Shown here: positions 1-55,646 of the stretch, piece after piece
How the letters are laid out: every line of letters begins with the position of its first letter
Position numbering within the stretch: the stretch's first letter is position 1
Virus record (IMG/VR): IMGVR_UViG_3300005918_000016
Length of the DNA: 64,000 nt
Strand: one strand, 5' to 3'
Source of the DNA: a virus
Lineage: Duplodnaviria; Heunggongvirae; Uroviricota; Caudoviricetes
Position numbers and translations under genes: made by a program
Notes under the pieces: generated by a model
Told to the model about the DNA's origin: nothing
Databases searched by the model: none
Seen by the model: the letters and a program-made list of their open reading frames with translations, nothing else

Positions 1-1112
1 GTCGCATCCTCTAACAAAGGATGCGTGGATTGAAACGTTACTGCCCGCATGACACCCCGGATGAGATCACCAGTCGCATCCTCTAACAAAGGATGCGTGG
101 ATTGAAACACTGTGGACCTGGCGGGGAAGAAGCCGACCTATGGTGGTGTCGCATCCTCTAACAAAGGATGCGTGGATTGAAACTTTCAAACAGCGACCCA
201 GTCGAGTGCGACTTGGTGGGTGTCGCATCCTCTAACAAAGGATGCGTGGATTGAAACAAGTGCCTCGCCGTCAAGGATCCAGAGGGGAAGCTGAAGTCGC
301 ATCCTCTAACAAAGGATGCGTGGATTGAAACAGGCCCACAGAACGGCTCCCACGGCCTGGGGACGCCGTGTCGCATCCTCTAACAAAGGATGCGTGGATT
401 GAAACGCTCAGAGGACTGCTCGACGGGACAAGACGGTCTTCCTCGTCGCATCCTCTAACAAAGGATGCGTGGATTGAAACTCGAAGTTGGGCGAAATCCA
501 GGAATGACGGTCACAAGTCGCATCCTCTAACAAAGGATGCGTGGATTGAAACAATCCGATGACACTTCCCTTTCCTGTCCGCCCTTGGAGCGTCGCATCC
601 TCTAACAAAGGGTGCGTGGATTGAAACGAGATCCCCCTTGCGACTCCCGCCCTGAAGGCGCTGGCGAAGTCGCATCCTCTAACAAAGGGTGCGTGGATTG
701 AAACGTAAGCGAACTCCACCCCTGGTCCGTGGGTGACCGGTCGCATCCTCTAACAAAGGGTGCGTGGATTGAAACGCAGTGAGCCAGCGCCCCACGAGCC
801 ATGCCTGCCTTACTGTCGCATCCTCTGAAAAAAGGATGCGTGGATTGAAACTAAATCCGATTTACGGGGAACTGGCTGGTCGGCTCACGTCGCATCCTCT
901 AACAAGGGGTGCGTGGATTGAAACGCTGATTCGGACTGATCCCTGAGAAGGCGCAACCCTGCCGTCGTACCATCTAACAAGGGGATGCGTGGATTGAAAC
1001 GAAACCGCAGCGAGGCAGAAGGGGTCACTCCCTCACGGGTGTGTGGATTGAAACATTAGGGTAGTAAGTGTAGACAACCTCGTCGTTCCCATGAGGGGGC
1101 GTGGATTGAAAC
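1..1112 (+). CRISPR. CRISPR array, 16 repeat units (13 intact 36-37 nt units plus 3 degenerate terminal units at 964-1000, ~1024-1054 and 1082-1112); spacers 35-41 nt
   Basis: Direct repeat GTCGCATCCTCTAACAAAGGATGCGTGGATTGAAAC begins at 1, 73, 148, 222, 296, 370, 445, 517, 592, 669, 740, 815 and 889. Palindromic core GCATCCT..AGGATGC. First repeat sits at the window edge, so the array probably continues upstream. Repeats decay toward 1112, the likely trailer end. Confidence 0.95.
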
Positions 1113-1195
1113 ATCGGTGATCCAGTTATACTCCCGATCCAGGCACGCCCCTTCCCCTAGAACGGAGTAGACAAGGGGCCTGAAAGGAGGTTCAA

Positions 1196-2095
1196 ATGAT
1201 GACGCTTTGGATGAAACTGGCGGTCTTAGCCGTCCTGGGGACAACGACCCCGGAGCAGACCACCCACCCTGCATATACCCCGTACTCTTACGACCAGACC
1301 CTCACTGCAGTGGCGGAGACCATCACAGCGGAAGAGGCTGAGTTGATCCTCACCGTTGACGTGGAGGAGGAGATCAACTACTGGATGATCAAGGAGCACT
1401 TCGGGTTCGATGACACCGTAATAGAGGACATCCTACATGTGGCCTTGCACACGGCAGAGGAGCCGATGCTCATCGCCCACATTGTTTCCACGGAAAGCGG
1501 TGGGGACCGTGACGTCATCAACTACTGTAAGGTGTGGGGTGAGCCCTTCTACAACGAGAGCAAAGAACGCTGGGAGAAGAAGTGCGTCAAGCTCGGCTCC
1601 TGCTACACGAACTGCCGGAAAAAGCGGCATGTTTGGAGGAACCACCTCGACGTCGGTCTGTATCAGCTTCGGGACGTGGTCGAGCGGGTCGGTGGCCCTG
1701 AGGACTCCAAGCGGTTCTGCGGGTGGTCCTGGTTGCGAGACTTTGAACGGGACACGGGTCGGGATGTGTCCTCTGAGTGCGCCCTGGAGCGTTTCTGTGC
1801 CCGTGACGCAATGATCCACGCCGTACACACCCTCCGGGAGGAACAGCTTGCAGCGGCCCACAGGGGCGTTGGTAAGGCCAACTGCCGGGGTCTCCCTGAC
1901 GAATGGAAGTGGATGGGCCTGTGGAACGGTTGCAAGAGCGCCAGGAACCATGCAGACCACACTGCTCCCCTGGTTGAGATGCGGGACTTCCACGTCCGTC
2001 TGACGATGTTGCGGTACCGTATTGATGAGATTGCCGAGAAATGGCCGCTCTTGGGCTACCTCATTGTGCCCCTGAAAGGACAAAAGGTAGTTTGA
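1196..2095 (+). CDS. secreted SLT-like (lytic transglycosylase-like) protein
   Basis: RBS AGGAGG 8 nt upstream of ATG. N-terminal hydrophobic signal-like segment. ESGG and GLYQL motifs resemble SLT-domain E-S and GLMQ motifs. GAGTAG box at 1165. Confidence 0.5.
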   Translation: MMTLWMKLAVLAVLGTTTPEQTTHPAYTPYSYDQTLTAVAETITAEEAELILTVDVEEEINYWMIKEHFGFDDTVIEDILHVALHTAEEPMLIAHIVSTESGGDRDVINYCKVWGEPFYNESKERWEKKCVKLGSCYTNCRKKRHVWRNHLDVGLYQLRDVVERVGGPEDSKRFCGWSWLRDFERDTGRDVSSECALERFCARDAMIHAVHTLREEQLAAAHRGVGKANCRGLPDEWKWMGLWNGCKSARNHADHTAPLVEMRDFHVRLTMLRYRIDEIAEKWPLLGYLIVPLKGQKVV

Positions 2096-2124
2096 AGCAG
2101 GGCAGACGCAATATAAAGAGTCGA

Positions 2125-2148
2125 GTCGTATCCTTTGACAAAGGGTAC
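2125..2148 (+). repeat. 5' portion of a CRISPR-repeat-like unit (GTCGTATCCTTTGACAAAGGGTAC) interrupted by a mini-IS
   Basis: Matches repeat positions 1-24 with point changes. Separated from the 3' portion at 2497-2510 by the inserted element. Confidence 0.6.
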
Positions 2149-2496
2149 TTGACAGTGCCCTTCATACCTGCTAAAGTCTAACTGTTCCTGCTTGAAACAG
2201 GGAGCTGTTGCGGCAGGAAAGCTCATGCTGATTGGGTAGGAGGTTCTGGTGTGCCCAGATGTTCTGGGGACGAACGCATCAAAACTAACGATCATCCGAG
2301 AGGCATAAAACGAGTGCTAAGAGAGCGATTCCGTGTTAAACGGACCAGTTCCTTGGGATTCGGACGGAAGGAGCAACCGTCATTCGAGCCCTTACCGTTG
2401 GGCCGGAAGTTTACTACCGAGGTACTTGGGACACCAAGATTCGGCACAGCTTCAAACTTGATGCCTGTTACATTTTAGCAGGTTTTAAGGAACGGT
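2143..2496 (+). mobile_element. MITE-like deletion derivative of a TnpB (IS200/605/607-type) element: left end fused to the last ~280 nt (tnpB 3' end, omegaRNA, right end)
   Basis: Left end GGGTACTTGACAGTGCCC...CTTGAAACAGG is shared with the full copy at 55573-55646. Internal junction at 2216/2217 joins the left end directly to tnpB codons (CGRKAHADWVGSAG). Right end terminates ...GGTTTTAAGGAACGGT, as in all four copies. Confidence 0.7.
2217..2496 (+). ncRNA. omegaRNA (reRNA)-like scaffold of TnpB element, orphan copy
   Basis: About 280-nt block conserved in four copies (2217-2496, 19520-19800 minus, 35221-35506, 54133-54430 minus). It overlaps the tnpB 3' end and reaches the right end, which is the expected omegaRNA position. 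Confidence 0.55.
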
Positions 2497-2510
2497 ATGT
2501 GGATTGAAAC
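2497..2510 (+). repeat. 3' portion of the interrupted CRISPR-repeat-like unit (ATGTGGATTGAAAC)
   Basis: Identical to the repeat 3' handle GTGGATTGAAAC immediately after the mini-IS right end. Confidence 0.6.
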
Positions 2511-2628
2511 ACGATGTTGATGTTCCACCTTGATGACCTGACTCAGGAGTGGCCGCTCAGGGGGCTGGATCAACGCTCCTAAAAGTCGGGGCCTTGTGGT
2601 TGTGCGTTTTTGACGGTTAGGAGAACGG

Positions 2629-2895
2629 CTACGCAGCCACTTTCTTTTTAGCGACCTCTTCCTTACCGAACGTCAGGGAATGGGCCTCGATGATCTCCAC
2701 GATCCGGGTACCCTCAGCGATGCGGAGCACTTCCAGCTTCTCGGGGGTGGCTTCCTTCCGGGTCACGTTGAGGACACGCTTGGTGCCACCGTAACCGGGG
2801 ACCGAGATGGTCACCTCCTGATAATCCTCCGACCAGCGGTACGGACCCTTGGTGTAGGAATGACCCTTGGTGATTACGGGTGTAGACTTCGTCAT
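2629..2895 (-). CDS. hypothetical protein (88 aa)
   Basis: ORF in a minus-strand island; no recognisable domain. Confidence 0.35.
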   Translation of the reverse strand: MTKSTPVITKGHSYTKGPYRWSEDYQEVTISVPGYGGTKRVLNVTRKEATPEKLEVLRIAEGTRIVEIIEAHSLTFGKEEVAKKKVAA

Positions 2896-3139
2896 GATAT
2901 CGCTCCTGTTCGGTTTTCAGTTCGTTCAGTACTCTTCTTCAAACTCGACGCTGAGGACTTCCTAGCGTGGCACTCGCATATTGGCCACAAGTTTAAGTCC
3001 AAGTTTCTTGAGGGCCAATATGCGCCTTTTCGTATTCCGCAAGGAAGCGGCGTGAACTATAGCCCCCCCAGTGAGGGGTCTTTACTCATCCTAGCTCTAA
3101 GTCCACTAGAAATACAATCGGCCATATTCTTCTCCTCAA

Positions 3140-3373
3140 CTACAGTGCCCTGGACGGAACGGGAAGCGTCTCTGCGCTGCCGTTTTCCTGCACAGGCACG
3201 CAATTGACACAGAGGATTACCCCGATGGAGTCCCCTTCCCGAATCTCACATTCAGCTTCGCCACACTCCTCATCATCAAACTCGTCGCTATTCCACTCAT
3301 GATGTCCGAAGTGGGGACAAGTGTTGGGGTAAGGACACCGAGGATCTGTAGCATGACTACAAATATATTTCAT
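3140..3373 (-). CDS. Cys-rich small hypothetical protein
   Basis: GGAGG 7 nt upstream of the ATG at 3373 (minus strand). Multiple CxxC-like Cys pairs. Confidence 0.4.
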   Translation of the reverse strand: MKYICSHATDPRCPYPNTCPHFGHHEWNSDEFDDEECGEAECEIREGDSIGVILCVNCVPVQENGSAETLPVPSRAL

Positions 3374-3424
3374 GTGGCCTCCGTGGGGTCTTCGGGAAGA
3401 GGTGTCCAGTGGGTCCACCCCTCA

Positions 3425-4012
3425 TCATTTGTTTTCTTCCGCCAGGAGCAACTCCTGGACCCGCTGGATTTCCTCGGTGGTGTGTATGGTGCCACCGCTG
3501 TTCAGCCGCAGGTAGAACCGCAGCCGCTCTTTACGGGAAAGGTCCACAAACGAAACATGGACATTGGGTAACCGACGCACATCCCGCAGTGACAGGTCAC
3601 GGAACCAGAACGCCTTCCCGTCGTCCATCTCCGCTGGGATCACCCCTTCTAGCCAACGGAGCGTCGCCCGGATCCTCTGTTGTCCGTCGATCACCTCAGC
3701 CGCTGCGTCCAGCCAGGACACCCCCTCTGGAAGATTCTCGTCCGTCTCGTACCTCTGGATGTATATCGGCGGAACCGGACCACCTGTGATCAGGTGCCCT
3801 ATGAAGCGGGACGCCTGCGAGTCCGTCCAGACCAGCCCCCTCTGATAGTCTGGGTTCAGGTCCCAAGGGACCTTGTTTTTCCGCCCAATCGCCCGAACCT
3901 CCTCCAGCAGGAAGTCTAGGGGAAAGTCTAACTGACCAGTTGGCAAGGGCCAGTCCTGGTAGCTACGCAGGGTCGAGTCCACTTCCGGCCTGTTTTTGAC
4001 ATTGCTTCCCAT
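3425..4012 (-). CDS. DUF262 / ParB-like nuclease domain protein (DGQQR motif)
   Basis: DYQRGLVW...IDGQQRIRATLRWL matches the DUF262 signature. Start MGSNVKNRP is preceded on the minus strand by the GAGTAG box, the UTR hairpin and GAGGAG. Confidence 0.65.
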   Translation of the reverse strand: MGSNVKNRPEVDSTLRSYQDWPLPTGQLDFPLDFLLEEVRAIGRKNKVPWDLNPDYQRGLVWTDSQASRFIGHLITGGPVPPIYIQRYETDENLPEGVSWLDAAAEVIDGQQRIRATLRWLEGVIPAEMDDGKAFWFRDLSLRDVRRLPNVHVSFVDLSRKERLRFYLRLNSGGTIHTTEEIQRVQELLLAEENK

Positions 4013-4062
4013 CGTTTCATTCTCCTCAGGGGTCATTTGCCCCTCACTTACTCTACTCAGCG

Positions 4063-4090
4063 GGGTCAGCAGATGATCCCATTGCACGTA
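4063..4090 (-). promoter_or_regulatory. GGGATCATC-N13-GAGTAG promoter-like motif (minus-strand instance) with UTR hairpin at 4028-4045
   Basis: Plus strand reads CTACTC-N13-GATGATCCC; exact 13-nt spacer. Lies upstream of the DUF262 gene start at 4012. Confidence 0.55.
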
Positions 4091-4148
4091 AGGATCTAAG
4101 GAAGGTGTGTCCGAAACGGCCCTTGAGCAAAGACCCCCAGAACTTTTG

Positions 4149-4176
4149 TTGATCATCTCAGATTCCGTTGGAGTAG
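4149..4176 (+). promoter_or_regulatory. TTGATCATC-N13-GAGTAG promoter-like motif
   Basis: Exact 13-nt spacing. Hairpin CGGGGTGGACCCCCG and AAGGAG follow; ATG at 4237. Confidence 0.5.
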
Positions 4177-4236
4177 TGTGGGTAGCCTGAGGAAGGCTCA
4201 CTAACATCGGGGTGGACCCCCGAGAAGGAGAATGGG

Positions 4237-6150
4237 ATGGGGTTTCTTATCTGGATCCTGATGCTTACGGGCATCGGAGCGGTCGGTCTCGGCGTCTGGC
4301 TCATCGCAAGACGCAAAATCTGGATGCTGAAGACGTGGCGAAAGGTCACCCGCAAGGTCACGGACAAGGTCCAGATGATGGACCAACGGGTGACACAGAC
4401 AGACTTCGACGCTCAGGTGCAGGTCGAGATGGACGCTGCGGAGGCGAACGTACCGAAGGGCTTGGGCTTGTTGAGCATCCCGCTCTTCCTGTACGCCCTG
4501 TTGGCCATTTTCTTCAGTTCCATGATGGTGGACGTGCCGCAATCCGGGTTCATGGAACTGGAGCGGAACTTCGGTGGGGCTTCGATGCCCGCAGGCCAGA
4601 TCATCGCTACACAAGGCGAGAACGGCCCCCAGGCAGCGCTGCTGTCCCCCGGTCTCAAGTGGGTCATGCCCTTCATGTACTCCACGAATGAACGGGAGCC
4701 TGTGGTTATCCCGGACGGGATGATCGGCGTGATCACCACCAAGGCGGGCAAGTCCATGCCGGAGGGAATGATCTACGGCCCCAAGTTCACGGACTTCGAC
4801 GGTTTCCTCGACGCCCAGGTCTTCCTGGATCATGAGGACGGGTACAAGGGCCAACAGGTGACAGTGGCCCTGCCGGGAACGTGGAAGTTCCACTCAGGGG
4901 TGTACTCGATGACAGAGGCACCTATGACCAACGTGGAGATGGGCCATGTGATGGTCGTGAAGGCCAACTACGGCGATGTGCCCGAGGAGCGGGCAACCAT
5001 CGAGATCACGGATCTCGTGGAGAAGGAGATTGCCCTGTCCAAGGATGAACTGGAAGCGGCATATCTGGAGGCGGAAGACGCCGAGCAGCGACGGCTGCTG
5101 GCTGCGGGGGTGGCGGAGAAGGACATCAGGATCGACCGCAAGAGCTTGAAGGTGCGAAAGACCAAGATCGTGCTGGTGGAGGTCAAACGGAAGATCCCCG
5201 ACCCGCTGGTCGATGTGGGTGAGGCGGGCATCTGGCGTGATGCGCTGGTCCCCAACAAGTATCCAATGCATCCGTTCGCCCACGAGATGACGGATATCAA
5301 TACGATGCGCCTGCGAATCTCCTACACTCCGCCTGGTGAGGAAGGGGAAGACGACGGGCGGGTCATCGTCCGTAGCAAGGATGGGTACGAGTTCCCGATG
5401 GACATACGCATTGTGTACCATGTGGAACCAATGAACGCCCCTTGGGTCCGTGCAATGGTAGGTGACGACGAGAAGATCGGGGATGTCGTGATGACCCCTA
5501 CGGTCCTCTCAATCTCCCGTGTGCTGGCAGGTCGGTCCAACGTGCTGGACTTCTTCGCAGACCTGGAGGTCCGGCAGAAGGACGCTAAGGATCTCATCGC
5601 CAAGAAGTGCGCCGTGTACGGTGTGACGGTCGATGAGGTACTCATCGGGCGTGTGGGCGACGAGGCTTCCCTGGGTGAACTGATGAAAACCCAGCGGGAC
5701 CGTGAGATCGCCGTGCAGCAGCAGGTCACCTTCGCCGTACAGCAGAAGGCAGCGGAACAGCAGAAGCGGCTGAACAAGACGATGCAGGAGGCGGAGGAGG
5801 AGAAGAAGCTCGCCGCCGCTGCGTATCAGGCCCAGGTCGCCGTACAAAACAAGAAGAAGACCATCACCGACGCTGAGGCCGCTGCCGAGAAGGTGACGAT
5901 TGCAGCCACGGCTGAAGCCGAGCGGATCTTCAAGATCAAGAAGGCGGAAGCGGACGGCTACACCCTGAAGGTTGCCGCCCTTGGTCCCCAGGGGGTGGCA
6001 ATGCTGGAAGCCTTCCTGATCATCTCCGAGGGCAAGATCAAGATCACCCCGAACGTCGCAGTCAGCGGCGGAGGTGCCAACGGGGGCAACAACGCCTTCG
6101 AGGCACTGATGGCCATGATGCTCCAAGAGAAGGCCGGACCCGCCAATTAG
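4237..6150 (+). CDS. SPFH/band-7 flotillin-like membrane protein
   Basis: N-terminal TM helix. Long Ala/Glu/Lys/Gln-rich coiled-coil tail (AEAERIFKIKKAEADGY) typical of the flotillin C-terminus. Confidence 0.55.
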   Translation: MGFLIWILMLTGIGAVGLGVWLIARRKIWMLKTWRKVTRKVTDKVQMMDQRVTQTDFDAQVQVEMDAAEANVPKGLGLLSIPLFLYALLAIFFSSMMVDVPQSGFMELERNFGGASMPAGQIIATQGENGPQAALLSPGLKWVMPFMYSTNEREPVVIPDGMIGVITTKAGKSMPEGMIYGPKFTDFDGFLDAQVFLDHEDGYKGQQVTVALPGTWKFHSGVYSMTEAPMTNVEMGHVMVVKANYGDVPEERATIEITDLVEKEIALSKDELEAAYLEAEDAEQRRLLAAGVAEKDIRIDRKSLKVRKTKIVLVEVKRKIPDPLVDVGEAGIWRDALVPNKYPMHPFAHEMTDINTMRLRISYTPPGEEGEDDGRVIVRSKDGYEFPMDIRIVYHVEPMNAPWVRAMVGDDEKIGDVVMTPTVLSISRVLAGRSNVLDFFADLEVRQKDAKDLIAKKCAVYGVTVDEVLIGRVGDEASLGELMKTQRDREIAVQQQVTFAVQQKAAEQQKRLNKTMQEAEEEKKLAAAAYQAQVAVQNKKKTITDAEAAAEKVTIAATAEAERIFKIKKAEADGYTLKVAALGPQGVAMLEAFLIISEGKIKITPNVAVSGGGANGGNNAFEALMAMMLQEKAGPAN

Positions 6151-6158
6151 TCCCCTGC

Positions 6159-6185
6159 TGCCCCCTTCCCTACGGGGAGGGGGCG
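6159..6185 (+). terminator. GC-rich hairpin after the flotillin gene (possible intrinsic terminator without U-tract)
   Basis: CCCCCTTCCC-TAC-GGGGAGGGGG inverted repeat 10 nt after the stop codon. Confidence 0.3.
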
Positions 6186-6208
6186 GTCCCTGGTCAAGGA
6201 GACCCCTC

Positions 6209-6772
6209 ATGAGCCTCACACTAGAAGACCTCCAAGATCACAAGAAGGTCAGTTGGGATACCTTCCGTTCGGTGCCGCTCGGGTTGCACGAAGGGGAGGA
6301 ACTGGAGATCCGGTTCCTGCTGAACAAGGCTGGGGAGCACAAAATCGGCCTGTTTGACCCACGGCGCCACTGGTGGTCGGTGTGCTCATCCACTACGGAG
6401 GAAGCGGACGCAGTTGTCAGCTTCAACGCCATCCTTGGTGCCGTCCCTACCCCGCTGCAAAGGAAAACCATCACCTTCCAGTCTGAGGGGGACAGCAAAC
6501 CGGATTTCGAAAAGGGTGAGGATGAGGTCGTCAACTACCACCTCACCCTGTACGGCATGTTCGTTGGCAATCTCCGAGTCGGCAAATTCCAGGGTCAGGT
6601 AGAGCACTACGACACGATACTCTTCCCCGAATCAGCGCAGGACGATGCCGCCTATCAGATGCAGTACGGACAGCTTGTGCTCGCCTGTTACGAGTTCGTG
6701 CGGGGCCTCTACGACGCCCACGCTGCCGCTGCCCTTAGCCCCGTGGGATCATCTCCGGCACCCACAGAGTAG
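6209..6772 (+). CDS. hypothetical protein; C-terminus GSSPAPTE overlaps the promoter motif
   Basis: AAGGAG RBS. Stop TAG is the last 3 nt of GAGTAG. Confidence 0.5.
   Translation: MSLTLEDLQDHKKVSWDTFRSVPLGLHEGEELEIRFLLNKAGEHKIGLFDPRRHWWSVCSSTTEEADAVVSFNAILGAVPTPLQRKTITFQSEGDSKPDFEKGEDEVVNYHLTLYGMFVGNLRVGKFQGQVEHYDTILFPESAQDDAAYQMQYGQLVLACYEFVRGLYDAHAAAALSPVGSSPAPTE
6745..6772 (+). promoter_or_regulatory. GGGATCATC-N13-GAGTAG motif
   Basis: Exact consensus; GGAGGTG RBS and ATG at 6795 follow. Confidence 0.55.
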
Positions 6773-6794
6773 ACAGGGTGTATGGAGGTGGCAA

Positions 6795-6995
6795 ATGACC
6801 ACAGAACAGAGTCAGGCACTTCAAGGCGTACAGGGAAAAGTCATCAAAGACATAAAAGTCGGGGAGATGACCTCTTGGTGTGACAGCGGCGAGGTCCAGA
6901 TCCGGTGCAGCGACGGAACGATCATTCGGATCAGTACCATTGCCGATGCCGAGGACAACAGAGCCTTCCTCGCACTGTCCGTCACCGTGCGGTAG
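6795..6995 (+). CDS. hypothetical small protein (66 aa)
   Basis: Motif plus RBS upstream. Confidence 0.45.
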   Translation: MTTEQSQALQGVQGKVIKDIKVGEMTSWCDSGEVQIRCSDGTIIRISTIADAEDNRAFLALSVTVR

Positions 6996-7445
6996 TTGGG
7001 ACTCCGACAACCACCGGGGGTTATCATCGAAGCCCCACGTCCGTCCCTGTGCCTGCACCCGGACGATCATCCTTTATGGGAAACAATGGAACGGCTGGCT
7101 TGGGTTCTTGCGAACAGTCACGGTCTACCCCTCCATTTTGTAGAACCCAAACGTAGACCCCTGTCCGATGGAGCAGCGGGAGTATGCTATTGCCACGAGA
7201 GGCGTATTGCAATCCGGCTCCGGTGTAAGGATCGTGTAGAAGACGGCGGGGGGTGGTGGTCGAAGCCAGACCCCTGGGATCAGATCGTATTGACGGTTGC
7301 CCATGAGGTTGCCCACCTCCGACATCCCAATCACGGAGCAGACTTCAAGGACCTGGAACAACGCCTGTACCGAGAAGCTCAGGAACTGCTAGGGTGTTGG
7401 GATCATCCCCGGCACCCACAGAGTAGACAGGGTGAGGGGGAATGA
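6996..7445 (+). CDS. SprT-like zinc metallopeptidase (HEVAHLRHPNH); the true start is probably the ATG at 7086
   Basis: HExxH...H motif as in SprT/WLM-type domains. Confidence 0.5.
   Translation: MGLRQPPGVIIEAPRPSLCLHPDDHPLWETMERLAWVLANSHGLPLHFVEPKRRPLSDGAAGVCYCHERRIAIRLRCKDRVEDGGGWWSKPDPWDQIVLTVAHEVAHLRHPNHGADFKDLEQRLYREAQELLGCWDHPRHPQSRQGEGE
7399..7426 (+). promoter_or_regulatory. GGGATCATC-N13-GAGTAG motif with hairpin 7436-7450
   Basis: Exact consensus; GAGGAGG RBS; ATG at 7465. Confidence 0.55.
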
Positions 7446-7464
7446 CCCCCGAGGAGGATCTTAA

Positions 7465-8040
7465 ATGAGTGGCTACCCCACACGATATACTGCAGAAGGT
7501 TGTGACAGCCAATGTGTGTACCGTTCCTGTATGTGGCCGGGTGAGGACAAGGGGATCCTTGCCCAGGGCCGGGGCTACACTCGTTATCACAAGAAACCGC
7601 TCCCCGTCTGTATGCAGAGACATCTTCATGGGTGCCCCTATCTGAAACCCAAACCAGACGTTGAGAACGCCCGATGTTGTTACGCACCCAATTACAAACG
7701 TAAGGGCAAGGCTCCCTCAGGATGGCGTACCTGTGAGACCTGCGGAACAATGGTCCCCCTTCAGGTGGCCAAAGCACTTAACAACCTCCCAAAACGGGAT
7801 GGCGTTCCTTGCCTACATGAACAGGTAGAACCGTCCATCATAACTGGTTGGTTTGAGTGCCCCTCTTGTCGTTACAAGCATAAGGGTGTTTTCGATCATC
7901 GGCCTCTCCCCTTTGAGAAACCGAACAAAACACTGCAAGAACTGTATGACACCCTGGAGGTGCGACTTAACCAAACCGCAGAGAGTGAAATGACTCTTGA
8001 AGGCGGATCGGCGGGATCATCTCCCCGACCCACAGAGTAG
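7465..8040 (+). CDS. Cys-rich hypothetical protein; C-terminus GSSPRPTE
   Basis: Several CxxC pairs. Stop sits inside the next GAGTAG box. Confidence 0.5.
   Translation: MSGYPTRYTAEGCDSQCVYRSCMWPGEDKGILAQGRGYTRYHKKPLPVCMQRHLHGCPYLKPKPDVENARCCYAPNYKRKGKAPSGWRTCETCGTMVPLQVAKALNNLPKRDGVPCLHEQVEPSIITGWFECPSCRYKHKGVFDHRPLPFEKPNKTLQELYDTLEVRLNQTAESEMTLEGGSAGSSPRPTE
8013..8040 (+). promoter_or_regulatory. GGGATCATC-N13-GAGTAG motif with hairpin 8049-8065
   Basis: Exact consensus; GGGAGG; ATG at 8077. Confidence 0.55.
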
Positions 8041-8076
8041 TTAAGGTGAGGGGCAAATGACCCCTGGGAGGATGCG

Positions 8077-8331
8077 ATGACCCTGGAGCAACTGTTTGAC
8101 AAGCATGGGAACTGCCCGACCATGGGCGACCCCTACCGGAACAGCAACCCAACCACGGATCTGCTGTTCGATGAGTACGGGGATGTGCTGCCCACGGCCC
8201 TGGCCTTCCTGAGGCGGCTTGTTCAGGAACGGAAGGTGAAGCCGATGTGCGACGCCATCACGATCCTGATGGCTGACCGCTTCGCCTGCAACACGAAGTG
8301 CAACTATAACGCCATCACAATGTGGCGCTAG
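8077..8331 (+). CDS. hypothetical protein (84 aa)
   Basis: Motif plus RBS upstream. Confidence 0.45.
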   Translation: MTLEQLFDKHGNCPTMGDPYRNSNPTTDLLFDEYGDVLPTALAFLRRLVQERKVKPMCDAITILMADRFACNTKCNYNAITMWR

Positions 8332-8439
8332 GAGACCCAATGACGTTCCACAGTGGCATGACCCTGTTGTGCGCTGGGATGGCGGTTGCGGGCTTCGCCA
8401 CCCTGATCATCGGCAACTACCTGGAGAAGGGAGGCTGAT

Positions 8440-8664
8440 ATGACCTGTGTCTTTTGTGGACGGCTGCGTGAGATGGTTCGTCAGCGTAAACTCAAGGAAC
8501 TGGAGCAGCGGGGGCGGACCCCGGACAGGGACTTCGAGGACTACGTCGACAACGAGATGAAGGAGTTGGCCGAGAAGCTCACCTCCATCCTGGACCCGGA
8601 CGGGCCGTGGGTCCGCATGGCGGATCTGCCCAACGGGAGCGCCGACGACGGCGGTGACTACTAG
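8440..8664 (+). CDS. hypothetical protein (74 aa)
   Basis: GGGAGG RBS. Confidence 0.4.
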   Translation: MTCVFCGRLREMVRQRKLKELEQRGRTPDRDFEDYVDNEMKELAEKLTSILDPDGPWVRMADLPNGSADDGGDY

Positions 8665-8700
8665 GGACATGTGGTCAACTTCTCAAAACCAGGAGTCCTG

Positions 8701-9468
8701 ATGAACAAGACAGGAATCGGCTACCTGGACTACTCGTGGAACCCCCTCACGGGATGTTCCCCGGTGTCTGCCGGGTGCCAGAACTGCTGGGCCAAGAAGA
8801 GGGCCACCGAGAACGCTGCAACGGGGTCGAAGTGGTACGACCCGAAGGACCCCTTCAAGCCTACGCTGCACCGGGACAGGCTGGACGAGCCCTCCCACCG
8901 CAAGACGCCGTCAGTAATCGGTGTGGGCTTCATGGGGGACATCTGCCACCCGGATCTCCCGGAGGACGCCCTGGCGTGTGTGCTCCAGTCCTGCAGGATC
9001 GCAAACCAGCACACCTACCTGTGGCTGACGAAACGAGCAGACAGGCTGGGAGAGGCCCTCCTCGGGGTGGACCCGGTCCCGAACGTATGGCTCGGTGTGT
9101 CCGTGGAAAATATGGCGGGCGCTATTGAGCGCCTGCCTATCCTTGCACAACTGGCGGAACGTGGATGGCACACCTGGGTCTCGATGGAGCCGCTGATCGG
9201 GTCGGTGACCCTCGCCCCGTCCCCACACCACAACTGGGATCTTGTCGAGTGGGTGATCGTGGGTTGCGAGTCTGGGGACGACCGGAGGCCGATGGACCCC
9301 GCTTGGGTGACCCAGCTTCATGGCGAATGCGACCACTTTGGCATCCCCTTCTTCCTCAAGCAGATGGAGGTGGGGGGCAAAGTCCAGGCGCACCCGACAC
9401 CCTACCTCAACGGTGTACAGCACACCGAGATCCCCGACGCAATCCAGAAGCACCTGGGAACGTCCTAA
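8701..9468 (+). CDS. phage Gp37/Gp68 family (DUF5131) protein
   Basis: WNPLTGCSPVSAGCQNCWA... N-terminal Cys motif and overall pattern typical of PF07505. Confidence 0.65.
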   Translation: MNKTGIGYLDYSWNPLTGCSPVSAGCQNCWAKKRATENAATGSKWYDPKDPFKPTLHRDRLDEPSHRKTPSVIGVGFMGDICHPDLPEDALACVLQSCRIANQHTYLWLTKRADRLGEALLGVDPVPNVWLGVSVENMAGAIERLPILAQLAERGWHTWVSMEPLIGSVTLAPSPHHNWDLVEWVIVGCESGDDRRPMDPAWVTQLHGECDHFGIPFFLKQMEVGGKVQAHPTPYLNGVQHTEIPDAIQKHLGTS

Positions 9469-19519: not shown

Positions 19520-19800
19520 ACCGTTCCTTAAAACCTGCTAAAATGTAACAGGCATCAAGTTTGAAGCTGTGCCGAATCTTGGTGACCCAAGTACCTCGGT
19601 AGTAAACCTCCGGCCCAACGGTAAGGGCTCGATTGACGACCGCTCTAATCGCCCGAATCCTAAGGAACTGGTCCGTCGAAGACGGAATCGCTCTCTCAGC
19701 ACTCGTTTTACGCCTCGTGGATGATCGCCAGCTTTGGTGTGTTCATTCCCAGAACATCTGGGCACACCAGAACCTCCTACCCAATCAGCATAAGCCTTCC
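19520..19800 (-). ncRNA. omegaRNA-like scaffold, orphan copy
   Basis: Conserved ~280-nt block. Confidence 0.55.
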
Positions 19801-19873
19801 TGCCACAACAGCTCCCTGTTTCAAGCAGGAATAGTTAGACTTTAGTAAGTTTGAGGGGTACTGTCAAGTACCC
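19520..19873 (-). mobile_element. second MITE-like TnpB-element derivative (left end plus omegaRNA/right end, no tnpB)
   Basis: Same left-end/internal-deletion junction as the 2143-2496 copy. Right end ...GGAACGGT at 19520 (minus). Confidence 0.7.
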
Positions 19874-22394: not shown

Positions 22395-23030
22395 CTAAGT
22401 CGCATCTTTTGGCAAAAGGTGCGTGGATTGAAACGGCGTGACCCCTGACAGATAGATGATCGCCTGACCGCTCACGGGGTCATAGGAACCCTTAACGGTC
22501 AGGGACGCCTCCGCCGGGCGGGACACCACGGGGATCTTGGGCCAGTCCCGGATGAGGATCCCAACCAGCCGCTCGGACTCCTGGACGATTCTGTGGGGCG
22601 GGATGAGCAGCGTGAGGGTGTCCCCATCGAAAGCAACGGGATGGAACCCCCGCTTCCACAACCACTCTAACAGGACGATCAACTCGGGGTGCTCCTCGGC
22701 CAGGATCTGGATGCCCTTCACCAAGGGGCGGAAGGCGTTGTCCGGTAAACCGAACGCCGAGTCAGGGATCGAGACCTCGGTGAGGCCCTCTGTCCAAGCA
22801 CCCCACTGGGGATTCACGGGAACGGTACGGGGAGCGCCACGCTTGCCCCACAGCGCCCCCAGAGCCTCCTGTTCCTGTGCCTGCTCCTCTTCGGTCAACT
22901 GGACCCACAGGAGGCGCTCACGGGACACGAAGCCCTGGTCCTCATCCGGGGTCCAGGGCAGTCCTTCGGGAAGTGCCCTGCCTACGAGGATCATGAGGGC
23001 CAGGTCACGGTGCTGTTCTAAAAGTGTCAT
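22395..23030 (-). CDS. hypothetical protein (C-terminal codons run through the solitary repeat, so the true end is uncertain)
   Basis: ORF only. Confidence 0.3.
   Translation of the reverse strand: MTLLEQHRDLALMILVGRALPEGLPWTPDEDQGFVSRERLLWVQLTEEEQAQEQEALGALWGKRGAPRTVPVNPQWGAWTEGLTEVSIPDSAFGLPDNAFRPLVKGIQILAEEHPELIVLLEWLWKRGFHPVAFDGDTLTLLIPPHRIVQESERLVGILIRDWPKIPVVSRPAEASLTVKGSYDPVSGQAIIYLSGVTPFQSTHLLPKDAT
22399..22434 (+). CRISPR. solitary CRISPR-like repeat unit GTCGCATCTTTTGGCAAAAGGTGCGTGGATTGAAAC
   Basis: Same length and orientation as the array repeat. 3' handle GTGGATTGAAAC is identical; stem changed by paired substitutions (GCATCTTTT/AAAAGGTGC). Confidence 0.75.
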
Positions 23031-23179: not shown

Positions 23180-23365
23180 ATGGAGCCCATCCTTCTGACT
23201 ATCAACGAGGTTGCCCGTTTGTTCGGGATGCACCCAAATTCGATCCGTAAACTCATGGGCGATGGCAGACTACCCTTTCTTAAGATCGATAAGTCGCTGC
23301 GGTTCGAAACTGATGCCGTGATGCTATTTATTGAGAAACTCAGGAAACAGAGAGCGAAGGATTGA
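23180..23365 (+). CDS. small HTH DNA-binding protein (excisionase/MerR-like)
   Basis: LTINEVARLFGMHPNSIRKLMGDG helix-turn-helix. Confidence 0.5.
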   Translation: MEPILLTINEVARLFGMHPNSIRKLMGDGRLPFLKIDKSLRFETDAVMLFIEKLRKQRAKD

Positions 23366-33004: not shown

Positions 33005-33154
33005 ATGGCCCACGAGTATGAATCCAAGCGAGCGACGGTCAAGGTCCTGCGTGCCGACAACTTCCTGGTTATCGTGACCGAAGACGGCGACATCTACTAT
33101 TGCAAGCGCACGGGTACGCTCAAACACGTCGTCGGGGGCACCAAGGGTGCATGA
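33005..33154 (+). CDS. small hypothetical protein (49 aa)
   Basis: AGGAGG RBS. Confidence 0.35.
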   Translation: MAHEYESKRATVKVLRADNFLVIVTEDGDIYYCKRTGTLKHVVGGTKGA

Positions 33155-33232
33155 GCAGCAACCAAAAACCTACCTGACTCTCCTTTTTTCTCGGTGATCC
33201 TTTTATAACCTCCACGTTGGTATAGTGGAGGC

Positions 33233-33439
33233 ATGAAACGAACCATGATCGTCCGAGTGACCACAACCGAATTTGAAACGTCTGATGGACGGGTGATCCC
33301 ACACCCCATTCCGTTTGATCCCGATGAGGTGCCTACCGTCGAAGAGTTCCAACAACAGTACAACAGGTGGCGCAAGGTCTTTGAAGATCAAGGACTGGTG
33401 TTTCCCATACCTGATGCGGGAGATGAGGATGCTGACTGA
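33233..33439 (+). CDS. hypothetical protein
   Basis: Preceded by the hairpin CCTCCAC...GTGGAGG. Confidence 0.3.
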   Translation: MKRTMIVRVTTTEFETSDGRVIPHPIPFDPDEVPTVEEFQQQYNRWRKVFEDQGLVFPIPDAGDEDAD

Positions 33440-34070
33440 TCGTCTCCTAGCTCTCACCAAAGCAGCCGAAGCTCTTGGTGTTCACCGGAATACGCTTCGG
33501 GACTGGGCTGATGAAGACAAGATCCCTCACGTTCGCACCGTGGGTGGGCATCGCCGTTTCAAGCAATCAGACATTGACAGGTTGCTGGGCAATCTCCCAA
33601 TCGATAAACAGCAAACGGAACGAGTTGTTATCTACTGCCGTGTGTCCAGCCACGATCAGAAAAAGTCAGGCGATCTTGAACGTCAGGCTGGACGGGTCAC
33701 GATACACAGCATCACGAAGCAGTACAAGTTGGTCGAAGTGCTTCAAGACGTTGGGTCGGGCATGTCAGACACACGCCCAAAACTCCGAAAGTTGTTCAAA
33801 CTGGTCAATGCCCATGAAATAGATAGGGTGGTTGTTGAACACAAAGACCGCCTGACTCGCTTCGGGTTCAATCTGGTCAATGCTTACTTCAACAGTCATG
33901 GTGTCACCATCGAGTGGACACAAGAAGTCCTTGGCAAAGGCTATCAGGAAGAGTTGGTCGAAGACATTTTGACGCTCATGTCGTCGTTCTCCGCTAAGAT
34001 TTATGGCAAACGTTCGGCAGAACGACGTAAGGCCAAGAAAGCAGCAGAAGCGGCAGAGACAGTCAAATGA
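33424..34070 (+). CDS. tnpA: IS607-type TnpA (MerR-like HTH plus serine recombinase)
   Basis: N-terminal HTH (LGVHRNTLRDWADEDKIP); VVIYCRVSSHDQ catalytic-Ser region; resolvase fold motifs. Confidence 0.75.
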
Positions 34071-35491
34071 AATGTCGCATCTTCCGACTTCATAAAGATA
34101 CCAATCAGTCCAAAATCGACAAGTTGGAAGTCCTACACAATGCCTACGTCAAGTACGTCCGTATCTGCGTACAAACGATGCTTGACCAGCGGGTCTATAA
34201 TCTCCCGAAAGCCGCCAAACAAACGTTCTTCCCACGGGCCACCAACCTTACGTCTCAGATCGAAAAGAACGCACGAGACCATGCAATACAAATCGTGAGC
34301 GCTTGGGCGAAAGCTACTTATGCTCGTAAGTTGAAGCCAACCATTACCAACCTTAAGCATGACGGTACCCTTACCGATCAGGATGCCAAAGCACTCTATG
34401 TCATCGGATTGAAGTCCATCAGTAAACCGTGGAAAGTTATTACTCAAGACCATCTCGACGCCTACCACACCCTGTTGGACACCTACGGAGGTAATAAGCC
34501 TATCGTAAGAAACAACCTACCCATGAGGTTGTCGGAGATGACGGCTCGATTGGAAGATACATCGAAGGCCCCTCTCGGGGATTTCTGGCTGAGAGTATCC
34601 TCGTTAGAAGCTCGTAAGTCCGTCTGGTTACCCCTCGTTGGGAATCCTTACATCCAACAGGCTGATCAGGTCAGTAAAGGCATTTCGGTCCGCAAGACCA
34701 AGCGAGGCTTCTGGCGCTTTGAAGCTGTCAGCAAGGCCGAGTGGGCCGTTCCTGAAGCACAGGAGGGTTGGCCTAAGTTGGGCGTTGACGTTGGTCTGAA
34801 CGTCCTTGCAGCTACCTCAGATGGAGTGACCTATGGTGAGCACGTCAAGCCCAAATTCGATAAGCTCTATGCTCGTGTCAGAAATCTCCGAGCAAATCGC
34901 CAACGACAGGATTTGAAAGACAACAGTCCAAGGTTAGATCACCTTGAGAGCAAGTTGAGTGGGTTGATCAAGACAGAAACGGGTCGTGTGGTGAATACCC
35001 TCATCGCCCGTCATCCCGAGACGGTGTTCGTAGTCGAAGATCTTGATCTTCGAGGTTGCCGGGGTCAAAAGCGGTTCGCTTACAGGGCGTTACAGATCAA
35101 CTTGGAAAGGAAGGCTCCAACAAAGAAAGTGAACCCTGCTTACACGTCGCAGGAGTGTCCTTCTTGTGGTTATGTTCATCGAGGAAACCGAAGTTCAATA
35201 AGGTTCCGTTGCCGCTGTTGTGGCAGGAAGGCTCACGCTGATTGGGTAGGAAGTGCTGGTGTGCTCAGACGTTCTGGGAACGAACACATTGGAACTGGTG
35301 ATCACCCACGAGGCGTAAAACGAGTGCTGAGAGAGCGATTCCGTCTTCGACGGACCAGTTCCTTGGGATTCGGGCGAAAAGAGCAACCGTCATTCGAGCC
35401 CTTACCGTTGGGCCGGAGGCTTACTACCGTTGGATCAGATTCGTCTGGCAGCGGCACAGCTTCAAACTTGATGCCTAGTAGATTCAAGTAG
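34067..35491 (+). CDS. tnpB: TnpB (RuvC-like, zinc finger)
   Basis: GVDVGLN (RuvC-I), VVEDL (RuvC-II), CPSCG...CRCCG ZnF, HADWVGSAG (RuvC-III). About 90% identical to the 54106-55572 copy. Confidence 0.85.
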   Translation: MKCRIFRLHKDTNQSKIDKLEVLHNAYVKYVRICVQTMLDQRVYNLPKAAKQTFFPRATNLTSQIEKNARDHAIQIVSAWAKATYARKLKPTITNLKHDGTLTDQDAKALYVIGLKSISKPWKVITQDHLDAYHTLLDTYGGNKPIVRNNLPMRLSEMTARLEDTSKAPLGDFWLRVSSLEARKSVWLPLVGNPYIQQADQVSKGISVRKTKRGFWRFEAVSKAEWAVPEAQEGWPKLGVDVGLNVLAATSDGVTYGEHVKPKFDKLYARVRNLRANRQRQDLKDNSPRLDHLESKLSGLIKTETGRVVNTLIARHPETVFVVEDLDLRGCRGQKRFAYRALQINLERKAPTKKVNPAYTSQECPSCGYVHRGNRSSIRFRCRCCGRKAHADWVGSAGVLRRSGNEHIGTGDHPRGVKRVLRERFRLRRTSSLGFGRKEQPSFEPLPLGRRLTTVGSDSSGSGTASNLMPSRFK

Positions 35492-35506
35492 GTTTTGAGG
35501 AACGGT
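35221..35506 (+). ncRNA. omegaRNA-like scaffold overlapping the tnpB 3' end
   Basis: Conserved block shared with three other copies. Confidence 0.55.
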
Positions 35507-47214: not shown

Positions 47215-47251
47215 GTCGCATCTTCTGAAAAGAATATGCGTGGATTGAAAC
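47215..47251 (+). CRISPR. solitary CRISPR-like repeat unit GTCGCATCTTCTGAAAAGAATATGCGTGGATTGAAAC
   Basis: 37 nt; 3' handle identical; stem variant retained. TTGACA at 47170 lies 40 nt upstream. Confidence 0.7.
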
Positions 47252-53830: not shown

Positions 53831-54144
53831 CAATGAAAAGTCACGAAACGATCATCGTCGAACAAACGGTCTCGGACGGGGACTCGGGCTGGATTCACGG
53901 GATGATGACTACCGTCATCCGTTTCATTGTGCCCGAGTTGGACAACCTCGCAATCACCGTTCACAAGGACAGGCTGTACATACTCACCGGCTTCGACCTG
54001 AAGGAGGCACCCGACACCAAGGTCGTGGGGCACTGCCAGCTTCCCGCCGAGACGGTCAACAAAGCCCTGGCCTATGCTGATGCCAAAAAGGAAATCATCA
54101 AAATCCTACAGCCCCTTGTGGATGAGCACATCACCGTTCCTTAA
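53827..54144 (+). CDS. hypothetical protein
   Basis: ATGA overlap. Confidence 0.4.
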   Translation: MTMKSHETIIVEQTVSDGDSGWIHGMMTTVIRFIVPELDNLAITVHKDRLYILTGFDLKEAPDTKVVGHCQLPAETVNKALAYADAKKEIIKILQPLVDEHITVP

Positions 54145-55572
54145 AACCTGCTGGAATGTAACAGGCATCAAGTTTGAAGCTGTGCCGCTGCCAGACGAAT
54201 CTGATCCAACGGTAGTAAACCTCCGGCCCAACGGTAAGGGCTCGATTGACGACCGCTCTAATCGCCCGAATCCCAAGGAACTGGTCCGCTTAACACGGAA
54301 TCGCTCTCTCAGCACTCGTTTTACGCCTCTCGGATGATCGTTAGTACCGATGTGTTCGTCTCCAGAACGTCTGAGCACACCAGAACTTCCCACCCAATCA
54401 GCATGAGCTTTCCTGCCGCACGAGCGGCAATGGAACCTTGTTGAATTTCGGTTTCCTCGATGAACATAACCACAAGAAGGACACTCCTGCGAAGTATAAG
54501 CTGGGTTCACCTTCTCAACCGGAGTCTTCCTTTCCAAGTTGACTTGTAACGCCCTGTAAGCAAACCTCTTTTGACCCCGACAACCTCGAAGATCAAGATC
54601 CTCAACCACGAACACTGTCTTAGGATGACGAACGATAAGGGTGTTTACTACACGACCCGTTTCTGTTTTGATCAACCCACTCAGTTTGCTCTCAAGGTGG
54701 TCCAACTTTGGACTGTTGTCCTTTAAGTCCTGTCGTTGGCGATTTGCTCTGAGATTCCTGACACGAGCGTAGAGTTTATCGAACTTGAGTTTGACGTGTT
54801 CACCATAGGTCACGCCATCTGATGTAGCTGCGAGCACATTCAAACCAACGTCCACACCCAACTTAGGCCAACCTTCCTGTGCTTCAGGAACAATCCATTC
54901 GTCCTTGCTGACCGCCTCAAAACGCCAAAAGCCTCGCTTGGTCTTGCGGGCTGAAACACCTTTGCTAACTTGGTCAGCCTGCTGGATGTAAGGATTCCCA
55001 ACGAGAGGTAACCAGACGGACTTGCGAGGTTCTAACGAAGACACCCTCAGCCAGAAATCCCCGAGAGGAGCTTTAGTTGTGTCTTCCAATCGAGCCGTCA
55101 TTTCTGACAACATCATGGGCAGGTTGTCCCTTACGATAGGCTTATTGCCTCCGTATGTGTCCAGCAGAACGTGGTAGGCGTCGAGGTGGTCTTGGGTAAT
55201 GAATTTCCATGGCTTACTGATGGATTTTAATCCAATGGTGTAGAGTGCTTTGGCGTCTTGTTCGGTAAGGGTACCATCGTGTTTGAGATTGGTGATAGTC
55301 GGCTTCAATTTGCGAGCGTAAGTGGCCTTGGCCCAAGCGCTCACGATCTGGATGGCGTGGTCTCGTGCGATCTTTTCGATTTGGGATGTAAGGTTGGTAG
55401 CTCGTGGAAAGAACGTCTGTTTGGCGGACTTCGGGAGATTGTGGGTTCGCTGGTCGAGCATTGTTTGTACGCAGATACGGACATACTTGACGTAGACTTT
55501 GTGCAGGGCTTCCAACTTATCGATTTTGGACGGGTTGGTGTCCTTGTGAAGTCGAAAGATGCGACACTTCAT
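54106..55572 (-). CDS. tnpB: TnpB (RuvC-like, zinc finger)
   Basis: About 90% identical to the 34067-35491 protein; all RuvC/ZnF motifs intact. Confidence 0.85.
   Translation of the reverse strand: MKCRIFRLHKDTNPSKIDKLEALHKVYVKYVRICVQTMLDQRTHNLPKSAKQTFFPRATNLTSQIEKIARDHAIQIVSAWAKATYARKLKPTITNLKHDGTLTEQDAKALYTIGLKSISKPWKFITQDHLDAYHVLLDTYGGNKPIVRDNLPMMLSEMTARLEDTTKAPLGDFWLRVSSLEPRKSVWLPLVGNPYIQQADQVSKGVSARKTKRGFWRFEAVSKDEWIVPEAQEGWPKLGVDVGLNVLAATSDGVTYGEHVKLKFDKLYARVRNLRANRQRQDLKDNSPKLDHLESKLSGLIKTETGRVVNTLIVRHPKTVFVVEDLDLRGCRGQKRFAYRALQVNLERKTPVEKVNPAYTSQECPSCGYVHRGNRNSTRFHCRSCGRKAHADWVGSSGVLRRSGDEHIGTNDHPRGVKRVLRERFRVKRTSSLGFGRLERSSIEPLPLGRRFTTVGSDSSGSGTASNLMPVTFQQVLRNGDVLIHKGL
54133..54430 (-). 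ncRNA. omegaRNA-like scaffold
   Basis: Conserved block at the tnpB 3' end/right end. Confidence 0.55.
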
Positions 55573-55646
55573 TTACTAACCTCTGATTCCTGTTTCAAAC
55601 AGGAATAGTTAGATTTTAGCAACTAAATCGGGTGCTGTCAAGTACC
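54133..55646 (-). mobile_element. TnpB-only IS200/605-like element (IS1341-type organisation), full length
   Basis: Left end GGGTACTTGACAGCACCC... at 55634-55646 (minus), right end ...GGAACGGT at 54133; no tnpA. Confidence 0.7.

Follow-up and report, generated by a model that had tools for sequence, protein, structure and literature searches.

The window analysed here, 64,000 nt of DNA from a virus of the class Caudoviricetes (IMG/VR record IMGVR_UViG_3300005918_000016), contains at positions 2125–2510 two pieces of a CRISPR (clustered and regularly interspaced short palindromic repeats) repeat with foreign DNA between them. The locus raises the question of what divided the repeat, and of what would be addressed by the guide RNA (omegaRNA) that the inserted DNA appears to encode. 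We consider it highly likely that a miniature IS607/TnpB element, reduced to its omegaRNA, entered a stand-alone type I-C repeat by crossover at a GG dinucleotide. The coordinates of the features are collected in Table 1.

A solitary type I-C repeat is split in two

The window opens inside a type I-C array with a 36-nt repeat, GTCGCATCCTCTAACAAAGGATGCGTGGATTGAAAC, and a spacing of 71–77 nt. The split unit lies 1,012 nt past the last degenerate repeat of this array and 29 nt 3′ of the gene at 1196–2095. Its 5′ part, GTCGTATCCTTTGACAAAGGG, has 18 of its 21 nt in common with the array repeat and is the sole match outside the array in the window at three or fewer mismatches (chance expectation 0.00). 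In its 3′ part, the 12 nt at 2499–2510 are exactly GTGGATTGAAAC, a sequence with 19 copies in the window, all on the + strand, where 0.4 are expected. Ten repeat variants were used to build a covariance model, which scored the two halves separately, with 20.5 bits for 2125–2153 (E 0.0015) and 16.4 bits for 2495–2510 (E 0.024). Two intact solitary repeats (22399–22434 and 47215–47251) aside, this model found no other partial repeat copies. A solitary I-C repeat is thus interrupted by a mini TnpB-derived element, as the initial annotation had proposed from a CRISPR-repeat-like unit, with boundaries that are corrected below.

Boundaries of the insertion and the reconstructed repeat

Every copy of the element starts with ...G-GG-T(A/C)C-TTGACAG and ends with ...AAGGAAC-GG-T, and conservation ceases right after the T. 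Both junctions of all copies carry GG(T), the target being otherwise unduplicated, and in copies A (the element at 2146–2495), B, D, E and F and in contigs L008 and L012 the left GG follows a G. Because every copy begins and ends in this way, we place the division of the repeat at 21|15 and not at 24|(AT)|12. Judged from these junctions, the repeat is cut at the shared GG; TAC belongs to the element, and GGG is a target that resembles a transposon-adjacent motif (TAM).

Excision of element A in silico, with one GG kept, gave GTCGTATCCTTTGACAAAGGGTATGTGGATTGAAAC, which is exactly 36 nt long and matches the array repeat column for column, TAT replacing TGC. The reconstructed repeat folds as ..((((((((((...))))))))))........... 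with −9.0 kcal/mol, in the same register as the array repeats, and contains a compensatory pair across the insertion, in which C5 of the left half is changed to U and G23 of the right half to A. As it stands in the genome the hairpin is split, and a hairpin followed by the TGGATTGAAAC handle is obtained only after the excision in silico. In its wider context the reconstructed empty site reads ...GAGTCGTATCCTTTGACAAAGGGTATGTGGATTGAAACACGATG....

The excision rule could be examined at copy F, where it restores the reading frame over the junction. The restored protein aligns gaplessly over the junction with an intact homologue in contig L061 (74% identity, 72 aa). The initial annotation had recognized genuine repeat fragments, with a boundary model of 24 nt, the element, AT and 12 nt. 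This model was rejected, since it yields 38 nt, leaves AT unexplained and, by keeping GGTAC, breaks the open reading frame (ORF) that spans copy F.

The inserted DNA is a mini-element derived from a resident IS607-type transposon

Element A is without tnpA, and an internal deletion has removed tnpB except for its 3′ tail, which overlaps the omegaRNA. The sequence at 2146–2495 is 90–91% identical to mini-copies at 19520–19873 (− strand) and in contig L004; with the 3′ ends of the two tnpB genes (34067–35491 and 54106–55572) the identity is 83–87%. Mini-copies A, B and F and those of L008 and L012/L027 have one common internal deletion junction, at which ...CTTGAAACAGG is joined to GCTGTT..GGCAGG of the tnpB 3′ region. 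Because copies with this one junction occupy different loci, the deleted form itself has transposed.

The family was assigned from the full-length copy C. Its TnpA is a serine recombinase with an N-terminal helix-turn-helix (HTH) domain (NF033518 transpos_IS607, 195 bits, cutoff 110; Pfam Resolvase and HTH_17), and therefore the elements are IS607-type and not IS605-type. The tnpA gene of C overlaps tnpB. The TnpBs at 34067–35491 and 54106–55572 match Pfam PF07282 (TNB zinc ribbon) with 45–52 bits (cutoff 26.3), and the D/E/D motifs GVDVG, VVEDL and HAD were identified by visual inspection alone. The putative left boundary of C lies near 33143–33147 (AAGGGT).

Some further features of these genes were observed. 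An ORF of ~66 aa (within 33235–33440) lies between the presumed left end of C and tnpA, and an inverted repeat (33165–33184/35477–35496) connects the two ends of C. For the zinc-ribbon/RuvC-III region of TnpB 34067–35491, the best solved-structure match is Cas-phi-3 (Cas12j) of huge phages (E 1e-7), with Cas12f and TnpB entries behind it. A third, divergent TnpB-like gene (23331–24761, + strand, 476 aa; TNB 24.6 bits, just below the cutoff; PHROG 'transposase') is located ~900 nt 3′ of the solitary repeat at 22399.

Promoter and omegaRNA scaffold

The sigma-70-like promoter in the left end of A is directed into the omegaRNA, is conserved in B, D, E and F, and is the sole consensus promoter in 1100–3000. 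A consensus fold of the omegaRNA from six copies contains 95 pairs, nine of them with compensatory changes on both sides, and the conserved 3′ region has the appearance that an omegaRNA scaffold should have. A search of Rfam gave no family for the omegaRNA, and no CRISPR-DR hit at gathering score either.

For IS607 elements, a GG crossover, a fixed nucleotide after the right end that belongs to the guide-RNA scaffold, and a GGG TAM for the TnpB of ISXfa1 have been described (Yoon et al., PMC10711439). The elements studied here fit all three points (GG crossover, fixed right-flank base and GGG); the GGG stands directly 5′ of every insertion, consistent with the ISXfa1 TAM.

Table 1. Position of the features discussed in the text
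Feature	Position	Strand	Remarks
Type I-C CRISPR array	1..1112	+	14 canonical or near-canonical 36–37-nt repeats, then 3 degenerate terminal repeats
Degenerate terminal repeats	964–1000, 1024–1054, 1082–1112	+	3′ end of the array
Gene of unknown family (earlier 'SLT-like')	1196..2095	+	between array and split repeat
5′ part of solitary variant I-C repeat	2125..2145	+	21 nt, GTCGTATCCTTTGACAAAG+GG; final GG, crossover dinucleotide; GGG, TAM-like motif
Mini-element A, non-autonomous, IS607-type	2146..2495	+	350 bp with one GG counted; left end and omegaRNA scaffold, gene-less
Sigma-70-like promoter in left end	2149..2177	+	TTGACA-17 nt-TAAAGT, TG before second hexamer
omegaRNA scaffold region	2204..2495	+	structure common to six copies
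75-aa ORF	2251..2478	+	leftover C-terminal tail of tnpB, probably non-functional; gene call in public annotations
3′ part of split repeat	2496..2510	+	15 nt, TATGTGGATTGAAAC; includes I-C CRISPR RNA (crRNA) handle TGGATTGAAAC
Predicted omegaRNA guide	2496..2516	+	T (fixed right-flank base, possibly scaffold) + ATGTGGATTGAAACACGATG
Mini-element copy B	19520..19873	−	internal deletion junction as in A
Second solitary I-C repeat, intact	22399..22434	+	56 bits; 8 nt 3′ of metallo-beta-lactamase-fold gene
Autonomous IS607-family element C	33143..35506	+	tnpA within 33315–34070 ORF, tnpB 34067–35491, right end 35506
Third solitary I-C repeat, intact	47215..47251	+	37 nt, 52.8 bits; ~360 nt 5′ of gene 47611–48540
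tnpB-only element D	54133..55646	−	tnpB 54106–55572 (annotated ORF coordinates); left-end type as in mini-elements
Element E (TnpB element)	just outside the window, upstream of cas3	as A	
Mini-copy F	seen in L004–L006		

Origin of the interrupted unit

The unit could be the last remnant of the upstream array, into which the gene at 1196–2095 would have been inserted, or of a second array downstream of that gene. The array decays progressively at 964–1112, only 1 kb away. In related contigs with a homologue of this gene (45–57% identity), CRISPR arrays or mini-arrays of two to three repeats, of other repeat types, follow directly after it (L061, 5995–6091; L054, 6250–6400; L052, 6070–6160), the array of L061 beginning ~60 nt after the gene and L052 and L054 having mini-arrays; in L054–L056 the arrays or mini-arrays are followed by a cas3 operon. 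A linkage of the gene with CRISPR is therefore conserved in the clade, though the CRISPR type changes.

Against such a relic, covariance-model searches with E≤10 and filters off brought up no other repeat in the first kilobase 3′ of 2510, 22434 or 47251, and the unit is nearer in stem and loop to the two intact solitary repeats (extended stem, TTTG-R-CAAA loop) than to the terminal array repeats. With the repeat of L061 it has only ATTGAAAC in common. A degenerate second repeat suspected by eye ~38 nt 3′ of 2510 (at ~2549) was unsupported by the covariance model. We regard a relic origin as possible but doubtful. Of the two readings offered by the initial annotation, a solitary or terminal repeat or a former extension of the array, the unit is at present a solitary one, 1 kb past the last degenerate repeat. 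Whichever the origin, Cas5c would require a hairpin that is split by the insertion.

The gene at 1196–2095 gave no family hit in databases, and the earlier label 'SLT-like', which comes from motifs seen by eye only, finds no support there. The metallo-beta-lactamase-fold gene at 21623–22390 is weakly similar to the anti-Pycsar protein Apyc1 (30 bits, below cutoff), and the gene at 47611–48540 has a weak DHH/DHHA1 phosphoesterase-like match. Considered in these possible anti-defence neighbourhoods, the intact solitary repeats may be regulatory RNAs or resemble RNA anti-CRISPRs (Racr). No consensus promoter was found at 22399–22434 or 47215–47251, and the sequences 3′ of the three solitary repeats had no significant self or cross targets when spacers and pseudo-spacers were matched over all fetched loci.

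The predicted guide matches the reconstructed empty site

According to the initial annotation, the guide of A would read into the repeat handle and be shared by every repeat–spacer junction of the array. The right flank indeed consists of the 3′ part of the repeat and adjoining flank. The part common to other repeats is GTGGATTGAAAC (12 nt) alone, and conserved repeat sequence accounts for 12–13 of the ~20 nt. Canonical repeat junctions read GGG-TGCGTGGATTGAAAC followed by a spacer. Most array repeats carry GGA, not GGG, at the TAM position. Four carry GGGT, and in these the guide has two TAM-proximal mismatches (GC versus AT) and meets a spacer-derived tail, which gives 5–7 mismatches in 21. 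The closest off-site is the degenerate repeat at 1024–1054 (site at 1040; 4 mismatches), and a perfect match is given by the empty site. Because 12–13 of ~20 nt are shared and canonical repeats have two TAM-proximal mismatches, we take the guide to be a normal empty-site (homing) guide and not an array-wide one.

Alternatively, the insertion may have been selected, with the TnpB guide directed against repeat handles of host, rival or own I-C arrays as an anti-CRISPR or array-editing weapon. In its favour, GTGGATTGAAAC within the guide is the universal handle of type I-C; at the TAM position, I-C-style repeats typically have GGG, as have the four array repeats and the repeat at 1024–1054; and the insertion was present in every contig seen, no empty site being found. 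This reading is opposed by the short extent of conserved repeat in the guide and by the mismatches given above. No genome with GGGTATGTGGATTGAAAC repeats was found, either by a repeat-pattern search of genome_contigs, which returned scattered single matches in unrelated genomes, or by a junction search of viral_contigs and metagenome_contigs. Moreover, GGGT sites number 781 per 64 kb and at least 8 insertions are known, so that one struck repeat is compatible with chance and needs no special explanation. We judge selection for such a role very unlikely. The same low likelihood attaches to a retargeting cassette, in which a guide anchored on the I-C handle would let TnpB bind or cut junctions of hosts or rival phages carrying ..GGG-N-NN-GTGGATTGAAAC; if true, the locus would catch in nature the physical fusion of a TnpB guide RNA to CRISPR repeat sequence.

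Reality of the arrangement

The 5′ fragment might resemble a repeat by chance, GGGTAC and the bases upstream of it being the left end of the element or a phage promoter-like motif. TTGACAG is preceded by GGGTAC in every copy, which agrees with one half of the refutation envisaged in the initial annotation; even so, the remaining 21 nt are clearly repeat-derived, and the compensatory pair joins the two halves. In the related phage contig L054, GTCGTATCCTCCCCCTACAGGGTAGCC occurs 5 nt after the homologous gene and has its first 10 nt in common with the fragment, and the genome carries a recurrent GATCATC-N12-AGAGTAGA motif. A chance resemblance is nonetheless extremely improbable, given 18 of 21 matches where none are expected, separate scores of the repeat model for each half, a total of exactly 36 nt with a compensatory pair over the insertion, and left flanks of the other copies that are unrelated beyond GGG.

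It is also very improbable that assembly mis-joined the two halves through the repeated ~350-bp element, even though A and B have 65 identical terminal nt, many short contigs end inside the element, and in L001/L035 and L037 the left part of A is followed by other right flanks. The arrangement of the window recurs in 11 contigs, which are 50 kb to 0.53 Mb long and come from different JGI (Joint Genome Institute) and ENA records or samples; this makes an artefact unlikely, and a random mis-join would not regenerate a perfect 36-nt repeat with its compensatory pair.

The interpretation as a homing element inserted into a stand-alone repeat has to be set against several observations. An empty site was sought in viral_contigs and metagenome_contigs, both as the right flank joined to the handle and as the reconstructed junction AAAGGGTATGTGGATTGAAAC, with no hits. 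Since an uninterrupted site was found in no collection, the intact repeat is one that we infer. The insertion is present in every contig that carries the identical 1196–2095 protein. A search of metagenome_contigs with this protein gave nothing, the source samples apparently lying outside that collection, and the more distant homologues have different downstream contexts with no orthologous empty site. The comparison with related genomes proposed in the initial annotation thus did not yield the ancestral state.

Other contigs join A to different flanks. In L001 (7302–8400), L007 and L035, among them an IMG/VR contig (L001) and one JGI contig, the left side agrees with 1–2496 of the window, and L001 and L035 follow the window exactly as far as the T behind the right end of A; then come TGCGACATCTAAG... 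and a methyltransferase gene in place of the 3′ half of the repeat. Either the structure varies here or contigs were mis-joined at the element; the reciprocal junction was not located. In L037 (ENA ERZ27316158 k141_24461), compared with 2114–2530 of the window and 2150–2620 of L003, the gene 1196–2095 and the left part of A pass into the right part and right flank of E, the switch lying within a 58-nt identical stretch. Because of these joins, the elements are places where either recombination occurs or the assembly is ambiguous.

The element itself adds further points of this kind. NCBIfam guided_TnpB scored 91.5 bits, just under its cutoff of 100. At the left end, C with its tnpA is unlike the mini copies, D and E, and mobilization of the mini-element by the TnpA of C is assumed. 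The predicted start of the guide is uncertain by ±1–3 nt, and guide length and TAM are predictions.

Genome context

By exact-protein look-ups, the window was placed in contigs of 521,674 and 528,260 bp. The source is a phage-like genome of ~0.52 Mb, a 125-kb version of which is listed as viral in IMG/VR; the label 'huge phage' rests on this listing and on the closest TnpB among GenBank phages, which belongs to a 485-kb 'uncultured phage'. A blastn comparison of 1100–9000 of the window with GenBank phages gave no match.

The DNA upstream of the window was read from a near-identical IMG/VR viral contig (L001/L002). It contains one further repeat, preceded directly by cas genes. The genes cas3, cas5c, cas8c/csd1 and cas7/csd2, directly 5′ of the array, form a type I-C interference module (Cas5c, TIGR01876, 102.7 bits, cutoff 85; Cas7/Csd2, TIGR02589, 248.7 bits, cutoff 182.25; Cas8c, TIGR01863, 178 bits, below the cutoff of 218.65, and Pfam Cas_Csd1, 225.6 bits). 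No cas1, cas2 or cas4 was found between cas7 and the array. Elements E and A have the same orientation and bracket cas3-cas5c-cas8c-cas7, the array and the gene 1196–2095. Unless it is a chimeric assembly, L037 resembles the junction that circular excision or tandem duplication of the whole CRISPR-Cas block would produce.

The array closes with three divergent repeats (964–1112). Two of them, with a short spacer of 27 nt between, measure just 31 nt and have another hairpin (GTCACTCCCTCACGGGTGTGTGGATTGAAAC, GTCGTTCCCATGAGGGGGCGTGGATTGAAAC); they resemble what would be left of a second repeat type. A recurrent motif, GGGATCATC-N12-AGAGTAGA, precedes many genes (e.g. at 6745, 7399, 8013, 13504, 16666, 35961, 38099, 56073 and 61088), is often followed by GTGAGGGG...ACCCC and a ribosome-binding site, and occurs 5′ of cas3 in the related contig L054. 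The motif probably serves as a promoter or regulatory element specific to the phage.

Proposed history and significance

In the proposed history, a stand-alone variant of the phage's own I-C repeat, GTCGTATCCTTTGACAAAGGGTATGTGGATTGAAAC, would have been situated 29 nt 3′ of the gene 1196–2095. A 350-bp derivative of the resident IS607-family transposon, with its serine-recombinase TnpA and its TnpB, would then have entered the GG of ..AAAG-GG-TATG.. in the 3′ arm of the hairpin stem. Crossover between GG dinucleotides by the serine recombinase would leave a GG at each junction without duplicating anything else. Of the transposon, the mini-element has kept only the left end with its strong sigma-70-like promoter and the ~290-nt scaffold; TnpA and TnpB would have to be supplied by full copies such as C and D. 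The transcript would end in the right-flank guide (T)ATGTGGATTGAAACACGATG, which together with a GGG TAM fits the uninterrupted site. TnpB, loaded in trans, would cut genomes that never had the element or have lost it, favouring its retention, which is the standard homing role. The guide would overlap the repeat handle because the element happened to land there, and any function of the solitary repeat has probably been inactivated, because the insertion breaks the hairpin.

The anatomy and boundaries of the element, the rebuilt repeat, the conserved RNA fold and the mobility of the deleted form follow from the sequences; transcription, loading of TnpB in trans, the identity of the TAM, cleavage and a function of the solitary repeat are predicted. 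The locus offers a clean natural IS607-type omegaRNA-only mini-element, with base-level boundaries, a left-end promoter and signs of mobility, in a phage-like genome of ~0.5 Mb. It shows that CRISPR repeats can be struck by such elements, since I-C-style repeats hold GGG(T) on the 3′ side of the stem, and it corrects the idea of a guide that addresses a whole array. The wider locus is of more interest than the insertion: a phage I-C system without adaptation genes, three solitary repeats, of which two are intact and one adjoins a possible anti-defence gene, and TnpB elements that bracket the cas-array block. The two same-orientation elements E and A may turn this block into a cassette that can be mobilized by recombination, as the hybrid junction of L037 hints. 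There is little support for this, as for the other speculative readings of a repeat-aimed guide or a step of guide–repeat fusion.

Comparison with known systems

Insertions of insertion sequences (IS) into CRISPR arrays or repeats occur. As in those cases, a mobile element here interrupts a repeat and probably inactivates it; unlike them, the inserted element encodes a guide RNA, so that the 3′ part of the repeat becomes a predicted guide for TnpB, a Cas12 ancestor.

Solitary repeats are also known in viral genomes, and some of them are RNA anti-CRISPRs (Racr; Faure 2019, Camara-Wilpert 2023, PMC10651486), such as the type I-C RacrIC1, which lies 11 nt after acrIC5 (PMC10651486). The repeats studied here are similar in that a lone repeat stands in a viral genome a few nt 3′ of a gene, with two more intact in the window. 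They differ in that the phage encodes matching I-C interference genes and an array, and that the unit at 2125–2510 is broken by an insertion; a Racr role is a candidate only.

PATE-like elements (palindrome-associated transposable elements), which consist of an omegaRNA only and act in trans, have already been described (Meers et al., PMC10055086), and TnpB is known to cut vacated or naive sites, favouring retention of the element (PMC10055086). Like these and other derivatives of IS200/IS605 that resemble miniature inverted-repeat transposable elements (MITEs), A is gene-less, retains both ends and the scaffold, is present in several copies per genome, and would depend on TnpA and TnpB in trans. 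It differs in its descent from an IS607-type element (double-stranded DNA, serine recombinase), PATE-like elements being derived from IS605-type ones (single-stranded DNA, Y1), and in keeping a consensus promoter directly 5′ of the scaffold.

A further comparison is with ISXfa1 and other IS607 elements (PMC10711439). Neither gene is left in element A, and the tnpB-only and mini copies have another left end than the copy with tnpA. With ~290 nt the scaffold is longer than the ~150 nt reported for ISXfa1, and A resides in a phage-like genome of ~0.5 Mb, its activity and TAM being predicted. The similarities to ISXfa1/IS607 are an HTH serine-recombinase TnpA that overlaps tnpB (copy C), GG junctions, GGG 5′ of the insertion, an invariant nucleotide after the right end, and an omegaRNA that overlaps the 3′ end of tnpB and extends into the flank. 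Each component of the locus is of a known kind; their combination is neat, and nothing in it departs from known TnpB/IS607 biology.

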